64,000 bases of DNA from NCBI GenBank assembly GCA_030390025.1, contig JASTWF010000499.1, positions 1 through 64,000 of the forward strand. The letters run 5' to 3'. A program made the position numbers and the translations under genes. This document shows, piece after piece, positions 37,124 through 37,753 of the stretch (its first letter is position 1; each line of letters begins with the position of its first letter). This DNA comes from Squalus acanthias (taxonomy: Eukaryota). The notes beneath the pieces were generated by a model, which did not search any database, was not told the DNA's origin, and saw only the letters and a program-made list of their open reading frames with translations.

Positions 37124-37438
37124 GTGTCCAGTCGGATGTCGTGTTGACTCAGCCAGCGGCAGAGACCGGGAGTCCCGGAGGCTCCCTGAGACTAACCTGT
37201 AAAACCAGCGGGTTCACTCTAAGTAGCACCCACATGCATTGGTTCCGACAGGTTCCCGGACAAGGACTGGAGTGGCTGGTTAGATATTACAGTTCATCAG
37301 ACAAGTATTACGCTCCAGTGATTGAGAGTCGATTTACTGCGTCCAAAGACACTTCAAACAGCATCTTCGCTTTGGACATGAAGAACCTGAGGACCGAAGA
37401 CTCCGCCATCTATTACTGTGTAAGAGACGGCAGTGGGT
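37124..37438 (+). CDS. IGHV: VH exon germline-joined to a D remnant (…YYCVRD-GSG)
   Basis: Acceptor [40 protein letters not shown]; about 11 extra nt after GTAAGAGA before the heptamer. Confidence 0.96.
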
Positions 37439-37476
37439 CACGGTGCTGCACAGAGCGAGCTCCTCATACAAAAACC
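37439..37476 (+). promoter_or_regulatory. Recombination signal sequence, 22-bp spacer (CACGGTG-22-ACAAAAACC)
   Basis: 6/7 heptamer and consensus nonamer. Confidence 0.95.
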
Positions 37477-37678
37477 CCAGACTTGGAGTTTGCTCACACC
37501 TGCGATCACTGCCACGGCAGGAGCGGCGGAGAAAATGAGGCTTAAATTAAAATAATGGGTAAAAGTAACATAGATTTATAAAAATATCTCACTGATGCAC
37601 TCTTAGGGGAGTCGGAATCAGGGTTTTCAGAGCGCTGTGGAATTTCATCTCTGTATTTTACAGTTAACAGTCCGCCGG

Positions 37679-37706
37679 AGTATTTGGCACGGCATGTCTC
37701 ACTGTG
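37679..37706 (-). promoter_or_regulatory. Recombination signal sequence, 12-bp spacer (AGTATTTGG-12-CACTGTG)
   Basis: Consensus heptamer; 6/9 nonamer at exactly 12 bp. Confidence 0.85.
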
Positions 37707-37753
37707 CAGTGGGTGGCCATGGGGACAAGGCACCATGGTGACGGTGACTGCAG
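37707..37753 (+). CDS. IGHJ: Germline-joined D-JH segment (SGWPWGQGTMVTVTA)
   Basis: WGQG motif; donor G|GTAAG; no 22/23-RSS and no (Y)FDY upstream of W. Confidence 0.92.

Follow-up and report, generated by a model that had tools for sequence, protein, structure and literature searches.

In elasmobranchs, each IgM cassette is a minicluster with one V, D segments, one J, four C exons, a secretory tail, and transmembrane (TM) exons. Passages of one review (PMC5192425) state that cartilaginous fish carry many IgM clusters that are already joined in the germ line, either in part (VD-J, VD-DJ) or completely, and the part of PMC4279169 that we draw on attributes this joining to RAG in germ cells. 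Partially germline-joined clusters were first described in the horned shark (Kokubu et al. 1988, as cited in PMC2193156). The section of PMC2193156 cited here also describes RAG-like germ-cell joining with P regions. It reports that joined NS4 light chains are expressed in pups and that expression of germline-joined horned-shark heavy chains was not detected; it regards germline joins of heavy chains as hard to dissect, and it doubts the biological significance of partially joined heavy-chain genes. In nurse shark lymphocytes, somatic joins can be made in any order, VD-DJ among them (PMC2435157, in the section cited).

We analyzed 64,000 nucleotides of DNA from Squalus acanthias (the window), which is the start of a 351-kb contig (C3332) of the assembly and has one heavy-chain cluster inside (Table 1). 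The cluster has the minicluster layout described above and the structure of a partially germline-joined VD-DJ gene: the outer spacers and their RSS are excised, and the D1-D2 spacer and its RSS are kept. Like the germline-joined IgM clusters in the cited parts of PMC5192425 and PMC4279169, it is an L-V-D1-D2-J-Cmu1-4-TM minicluster amid split and fully joined ones. There is no difference in kind; the excerpt of the review PMC5192425 names VD-DJ. In the portion of the literature on germline-joined clusters that we searched, we did not find a D2 that has lost bases beside an intact heptamer, two sister clusters that record stepwise closure, or all eight join states in one assembly.

Two other described systems are close. 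The nurse shark IgM1gj (parts of PMC4279169 and PMC5192425) is, like our gene, a germline-joined mu-type heavy chain with a restricted CDR3, but it is fully joined and lacks Cmu2. The window has four C domains, Cmu2 among them, and an open D1-D2 junction, so it is not IgM1gj. In the nurse shark NS4 light chains, as far as the cited section of PMC2193156 describes them, the RSS are cleanly excised, the coding ends are trimmed slightly and may carry P nucleotides, N nucleotides are few or absent, and several separate events took place, all of which resembles the window. However, V is fully joined to J in the NS4 genes, which leaves no junction to vary, whereas our heavy-chain cluster keeps one open join.

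Table 1. Features of the IgM heavy-chain cluster, numbered from the first letter of the window.
Feature	Positions	Strand	Remarks
Proximal upstream region (putative promoter)	36741..36950	+	0-3 mismatches per ~210 bases versus nine close paralogues, including split L005, L007, L010, L012, L013
Leader exon, 46 bases, phase 1	36951..36996	+	Donor variant also in L021, L022, L026
VH exon with frame open, the two Cys and Trp present, 3' end untrimmed	37124..37428	+	Pfam V-set, E 1.5e-17; V ends compared with paralogues
Extra G at V-D1 join	37429..37429	+	Compared with split V ends and D1; putative P nucleotide
D1 remnant, last 9 of 14 bases of the L007/L012 D1 type	37430..37438	+	
D1 3' RSS, 22-base spacer, not V's own 23-RSS	37439..37476	+	
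Nested 12-RSS, nonamer in common with the D1 22-RSS	37449..37476	+	CAC in 2 of 16 exact pattern matches (window, L012)
D1-D2 spacer, private 111-base deletion near 37583	37477..37678	+	RSS to RSS 268 versus 378-380 bases in the nearest split clusters
D2 5' RSS, 12-base spacer, nonamer standard for the genome	37679..37706	-	Nonamer common to 13 of 19 rows
D2 remnant, 3' end whole, first three bases gone at heptamer border	37707..37716	+	Equals D2 of L006 minus three bases; 1 of 19 D2 5' ends
JH fused to D2, WGQG intact, donor after 37753	37717..37753	+	CCA at 37717-37719 either J-derived (then 8-base deletion) or P nucleotides
Cmu1 exon	46437..46736	+	Open frame, Pfam C1-set
Cmu2 exon	48076..48387	+	Open frame, Pfam C1-set
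Cmu3 exon	50553..50861	+	Open frame, Pfam C1-set
Cmu4 and secretory tail	51380..51771	+	Internal membrane-form donor after 51709; polyA signals 51800, 51810
TM1 exon	56468..56595	+	Open, splice sites intact
TM2 exon with stop codon	56736..56744	+	Open, splice sites intact

The leader, V, Cmu1-4, secretory tail, TM1, and TM2 are open, the secreted and membrane forms both translate without stops, and every splice site in the window letters is GT/AG. This bears out the first-pass annotation, in which the exons and splice sites looked intact. Pfam finds one V-set and four C1-set domains in the cluster, and mu chains make up most of the top rows when Cmu4 and the tail are compared with solved structures. 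Cmu4 has a private Gly-to-Cys change at 51535-51537, seen in 0 of 12 paralogues. Tandem repeats occupy positions 1-690, 41222-42415 (in the J-Cmu1 intron), and 52203-54232 (between Cmu4 and TM1); the two intronic repeats are also present in paralogues.

In a DNA search of the genome, the query split into three pieces (V, D1 plus spacer, and J), which in many paralogues are separated by gaps of about 460 and about 390 bases. This gave 53 distinct candidate loci, of which 7 had no V or no J. Our script called the remaining 46, two of these (L033 and L036) were miscalls without a V, and 44 loci were classified: 12 V-D-D-J, 1 VD-D-J, 1 V-DD-J, 2 V-D-DJ, 8 VDD-J, 4 VD-DJ (the window, L002, L003, and L004), 3 V-DDJ, and 13 VDDJ. 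So all eight possible join states occur among 44 loci of one assembly. The census is a lower bound, and some rows from small contigs may be alternative haplotypes. Ten further stretches upstream of extra TM matches yielded two J matches that were already in the set and no V, so the census does not cover every locus. Contig C29, which is separate from the window's C3332, carries most of the IgM clusters.

Some features of the other clusters are worth recording. Eight loci, L005, L007, L010, L012, L013, L020, L022, and L023 (seven split, one V-D-DJ), have an insert of 146 bases located about 210 bases before the ATG; it is absent from the window and from all other called rows, including the split L019 and L046-L048; it probably marks a recent expansion of split clusters. 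One-base frameshifts in the V of L007 (split) and L011 (VDD-J) make these pseudogenes or are assembly errors. L029 (V-DD-J, C3620:80100-87700) has no Cmu1 match and no N gap between J and Cmu2, and it would encode a mu chain without the first constant domain.

Between V and J, the window letters contain a sole pair of RSS, with spacers of 22 and 12 bases. Ten bases (37429-37438) follow the end of the V exon at 37428, and then come the heptamer CACGGTG, a 22-base spacer, and the nonamer ACAAAAACC (37439-37476). The opposed 12-RSS is at 37679-37706, with a nonamer that matches 6 of 9 positions of the consensus. The J tryptophan codon starts at 37720, 13 bases past this 12-RSS, and J has no 23-RSS in front of it. 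The first-pass annotation had reported this RSS pair and a J that has no long-spacer RSS, and the extra D-like bases that it described between V and the RSS turn out to be one G and the 9-base D1 remnant. The RSS of V and of J have 23-base spacers in split clusters, where the 22-RSS is D1's, so the RSS behind the window's V is that of D1 and the interval after it is the D1-D2 spacer. Indeed, the 268-base interval aligns with the D1-D2 spacer of split paralogues, and the V-D1 spacer (417-526 bases in split paralogues) and the D2-J spacer (391-394) are gone, so the layout is not due to chance.

The first-pass annotation had also considered that this lineage might normally have V-22/12-J clusters without D segments. 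We found no support for this idea, to which we give next to no chance: 12 of the 44 loci are full V-D1-D2-J clusters, the standard layout for sharks, with V-23 / 12-D1-22 / 12-D2-12 / 23-J signals, and the pair in the window is D1's and D2's.

That pair, D1's own 22-RSS and D2's own 12-RSS, is the same as in split clusters. Judged by its letters, it is of a working type and it obeys the 12/23 rule, as had been proposed. The 6/9 nonamer of the 12-RSS had been singled out for testing, but it is the commonest D2 5' nonamer in the genome: 13 of 19 loci carry it, including 7 of the 12 split ones, and we rejected a weak nonamer as a defect. The spacer of the split L018 and L019 (286-287 bases) is close to the window's 268 in length, and germline D1-D2 joins are present in L014, L021, L026, L029, and L038. 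Three details had been overlooked: the nested 12-RSS, the private 111-base deletion in the spacer, and the three bases gone from the 5' end of D2. The nested 12-RSS (37449-37476) has an intact CAC inside D1's 22-base spacer, where TAC is commoner, and the cluster keeps no 23-RSS as a partner for it.

The homology map against split paralogues makes the cluster VD1-D2J, so the earlier claim that the V-D and D-J joins are fixed and only the central join is left holds. Neither join keeps a remnant of an RSS, and all four RSS of the outer spacers are gone. Both joins are at RSS borders and have the trimming and putative P nucleotides of coding-end processing, with the J side readable in two ways. 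At the V-D1 join, 0 bases were trimmed from V, one G (compatible with a P nucleotide) follows, and 5 bases were trimmed from D1. At the D2-J join, the complete 3' end of D2 is followed by CCA and then by the tryptophan codon. The less likely reading is that CCA is three P nucleotides and that 14 bases of J were trimmed. We favor the other reading, that a J of the GCCATGG type was probably trimmed by 2-3 bases and later shortened by the loss of 8 bases from one TGG to the next; the D2 and J types that this reading requires are exactly those of L006. Among the rows with a D2-J join, the 20 others retain 9-14 of the 14 bases of J, and the window retains 0 (L014 was left out, as it has a later J deletion of its own). 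The first-pass annotation had J trimmed back to its tryptophan, but with these counts and with letters that fit a later 8-base deletion, this was probably not RAG trimming. N bases are not required to explain either junction. The small deletions that came later (111 bases in the spacer and probably 8 in J) would have been tolerated, because it is the open junction alone that sets the frame.

We are skeptical that ordinary deletion, by slippage or microhomology repair and without RAG, made the two joins. Such deletions do affect these genes, as 24 bases were lost between CCATGG repeats in the J of L014 and probably 8 in the J of the window. However, both large deletions end 0-5 bases from RSS borders and remove whole RSS, and this RSS-border pattern extends across 32 joined loci in seven configurations. 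Also, L014 retains both copies of an 8-base repeat in D1 and D2 that a repeat-driven deletion would collapse. We consider the idea hardly credible, and we infer that RAG was the agent.

The 5' end of D2 is a different case. Compared with L006, three bases are gone exactly at the intact heptamer, which is true of 1 of 19 such ends, and no repeat accounts for the loss. A RAG cut that is then resealed is known as an open-and-shut joint. The gap in D2 would fit such a joint, or a single chance deletion; either is possible. Beside intact V 23-RSS, V 3' ends of altered length occur in L022/L023 (net +4) and in L021/L029 (net +1), and these may be open-and-shut joints with added bases or conversions from a VD-joined cluster. 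In the part of the literature that we searched, we found no open-and-shut joints in the germ lines of sharks or other cartilaginous fish, and they may have been described elsewhere.

The first-pass annotation had pointed out that an unjoined V-D-D-J in germline reads would imply a somatic B-lineage origin or a misassembly. The cited section of PMC2435157 reports somatic VD-DJ intermediates in shark spleen and thymus, and the 2R intermediates of the nurse shark that it describes have the configuration seen here; V-D1 and D2-J can precede D1-D2. Contig C3332 also lies apart from C29. But those somatic intermediates are clonal and have N and P diversity, whereas for the window the assembly contains no split parent, and later deletions of its own have followed. 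More precisely, we scored 40 candidates each for V and for the J intron and found no unjoined twin above 96% identity in the assembly. The nearest V is 93% identical, the nearest J intron is 96% identical, and a genome search for the D2-J junction pattern that allowed up to 2 mismatches gave a single occurrence, so a lymphocyte would have had no split parent to derive this form from. Furthermore, a junction unique to one clone should not win the consensus, and the private deletions in the spacer and J and the private changes in the C exons point to a separate germ-line history. A lymphocyte-derived intermediate or a misassembly is thus very unlikely. Because there is no unjoined twin, the VD-DJ state is likely germline and inherited. 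We also rejected the idea that the window is a haplotig of a split cluster, as the best identity is 96%.

Joins are inherited elsewhere in this genome, because diverged joined copies with identical joins sit on one contig (L008/L009, L015/L016, and L027/L028; another case is the near-identical L026/L038). A single origin of all VD-DJ loci is not favored: the V-D1 letters of L001 (the window), L002, and L003/L004 differ, and none can be derived from another. The AU test keeps one clade of all VD-DJ loci (p 0.415, 0.554, and 0.465 for three groupings), so the independence of the joins is argued from the junction letters.

We also looked at runs, whose contigs show presence and not absence. In the 8 runs that we looked at, out of 20 listed (X1, X5, X6, and X7, guessed to be DNA, and X8, X14, X16, and X17, guessed to be RNA), there were paralogue letters at the window's private sites, and among the pieces listed for those runs, none spans the window junctions. 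No RNA run containing 36900-37900 was among the runs listed, where the best share of words was 0.28. One and the same in-frame VDJ junction, aligned to window positions 37420-37720, appears in X5 and in X17. It is possibly from an expressed germline-joined cluster, and it is neither the window's junction nor that of any census locus.

What happens to a VD-DJ cluster when its last join is made? Two loci on C29 suggest an answer. L002 (C29:6601657, VD-DJ) and L014 (C29:8647605, VDDJ) are sisters in the upstream-plus-V tree (100/100) and in the J-intron tree (100/98), and they are identical at 995 of 1003 bases (99.2%) and 670 of 675 (99.3%). Their V-D1 and D2-J joins match, and in L014 D1 is fused to D2 at the RSS borders: the spacer and both RSS are gone, and D1 and D2 overlap by two bases. 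The simplest history is that a VD-DJ ancestor closed its last join in the germ line. The product of this closure, L014, does not keep the reading frame, and its WGQG has since been lost. L002 has 0 private C-exon changes and L014 has 31; because their C exons differ, an exchange of C regions is suggested. We found no report of stepwise closure, or of partial joins in genome assemblies, in the part of the literature that we searched.

The pair L002/L014 gives indirect support to the idea that the window's cluster could still rearrange at D1-D2. We simulated this join with 0-6 bases trimmed per side and 0-6 N bases, all with equal weights: 114 of 343 joins were in frame, with a CDR3 of 7-12 residues (mode 9-10), and the fixed D2-J frame has no stop. 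The D1 and D2 remnants have an 8-base repeat in common, and a join that collapses it would be in frame. The blunt germ-line CDR3 is 32 bases in the window versus 49-54 in split clusters. The first-pass annotation had expected a short CDR3 with one variable junction, and indeed one join is open and the ends are fixed. The product would be only modestly short, however, because the in-frame VDDJ loci have CDR3s of 9-14 residues and four related-cluster junctions (from runs guessed to be RNA) have 10-12.

Overall, it is probable that this is an intact shark-type IgM cluster whose V-D1 and D2-J segments were fused in an ancestor's germ line, likely by RAG, and that a B cell would need to make a single D1-D2 join. 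RAG in ancestral germ cells would have made the two outer joins, so that a developing B cell would have only D1-to-D2 left to finish the gene. About one third of these joins should be in frame. With a CDR3 of about 7-12 residues and fixed ends, the result would be a narrow, semi-invariant heavy chain.

It is also conceivable that the cluster was joined in the germ line and is now a silent relic, intact on paper and neither rearranged nor expressed in B cells. Joined heavy-chain genes were not found expressed in the horned shark (PMC2193156, cited section), the window has gathered three deletions and 7 private replacements, and the nested 12-RSS, with the same nonamer, could compete for RAG. 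On the other hand, no exon or splice site is disrupted, hardly anything has changed in the proximal upstream region, the RSS are a standard pair, and omega is about 0.32. This value varies with the choice of paralogues, and the selection that it reflects may be older than the joins. Against 10 paralogues, there were 12 replacement and 7 silent private changes in the C exons (omega 0.54, p 0.15, not significant); with L041 and L029 added (11-12 paralogues), there were 7 of each (omega about 0.32, one-sided p 0.03). Among the private replacements are four in Cmu3 and the one that creates the Cys in Cmu4. The evidence leans towards purifying selection on the C exons, at a time that the counts do not date. 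We regard a silent relic as unlikely.

The gene is also a mosaic. The TM region and downstream flank (C3332 53456-70879) are 95-98% alike to C878:216366-225509 (an orphan TM region) and to C29:8952398-8970884 (the locus of L041, which is VDDJ and has a V of another family), and the 5' part is closer to other clusters. Behind TM, the flank matches the part of C29 that follows L041 at up to 98.2% identity for 8.8 kb, after which the similarity ends. We rejected C878 as a closer relative of the cluster, as it holds only the orphan TM region, with no C exon match in 30 kb upstream.

Among the fully joined loci, 12 of 13 are in frame and stop-free. Counted as distinct joins, this is 6 of 7 (p 0.007 versus one third), which suggests selection for productive germ-line VDJ.

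The VD-DJ configuration itself is already known in sharks, and it is common in this genome. The value of the window lies in the comparison set, and the leads are the stepwise closure and the possible open-and-shut scar. Because this genome contains closely related paralogues in split and joined form, every one of the eight join states, and a before-and-after sister pair, it shows directly in what order and by what mechanism germ-line joins are made. Similarly, private bases in V, CDR3, the spacer, and Cmu distinguish the cluster in repertoire or excision-circle data, so the questions of whether a partly joined IgM gene is used and whether it yields a near-public antibody can be addressed. A wider reading is tentative, and on balance we doubt it: RAG might revisit IgM clusters over many germ-cell generations, closing the three joins singly (as from L002 to L014, or in L029 and L021, which share a D1-D2 join) and sometimes cutting and resealing (the D2 scar), with in-frame products selected and with the window's cluster serving meanwhile as a one-junction, semi-invariant chain. 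If this is true, then germ-line RAG would be an ongoing mutator that rewrites the inherited ends of D and V and moves clusters from split to fully joined.
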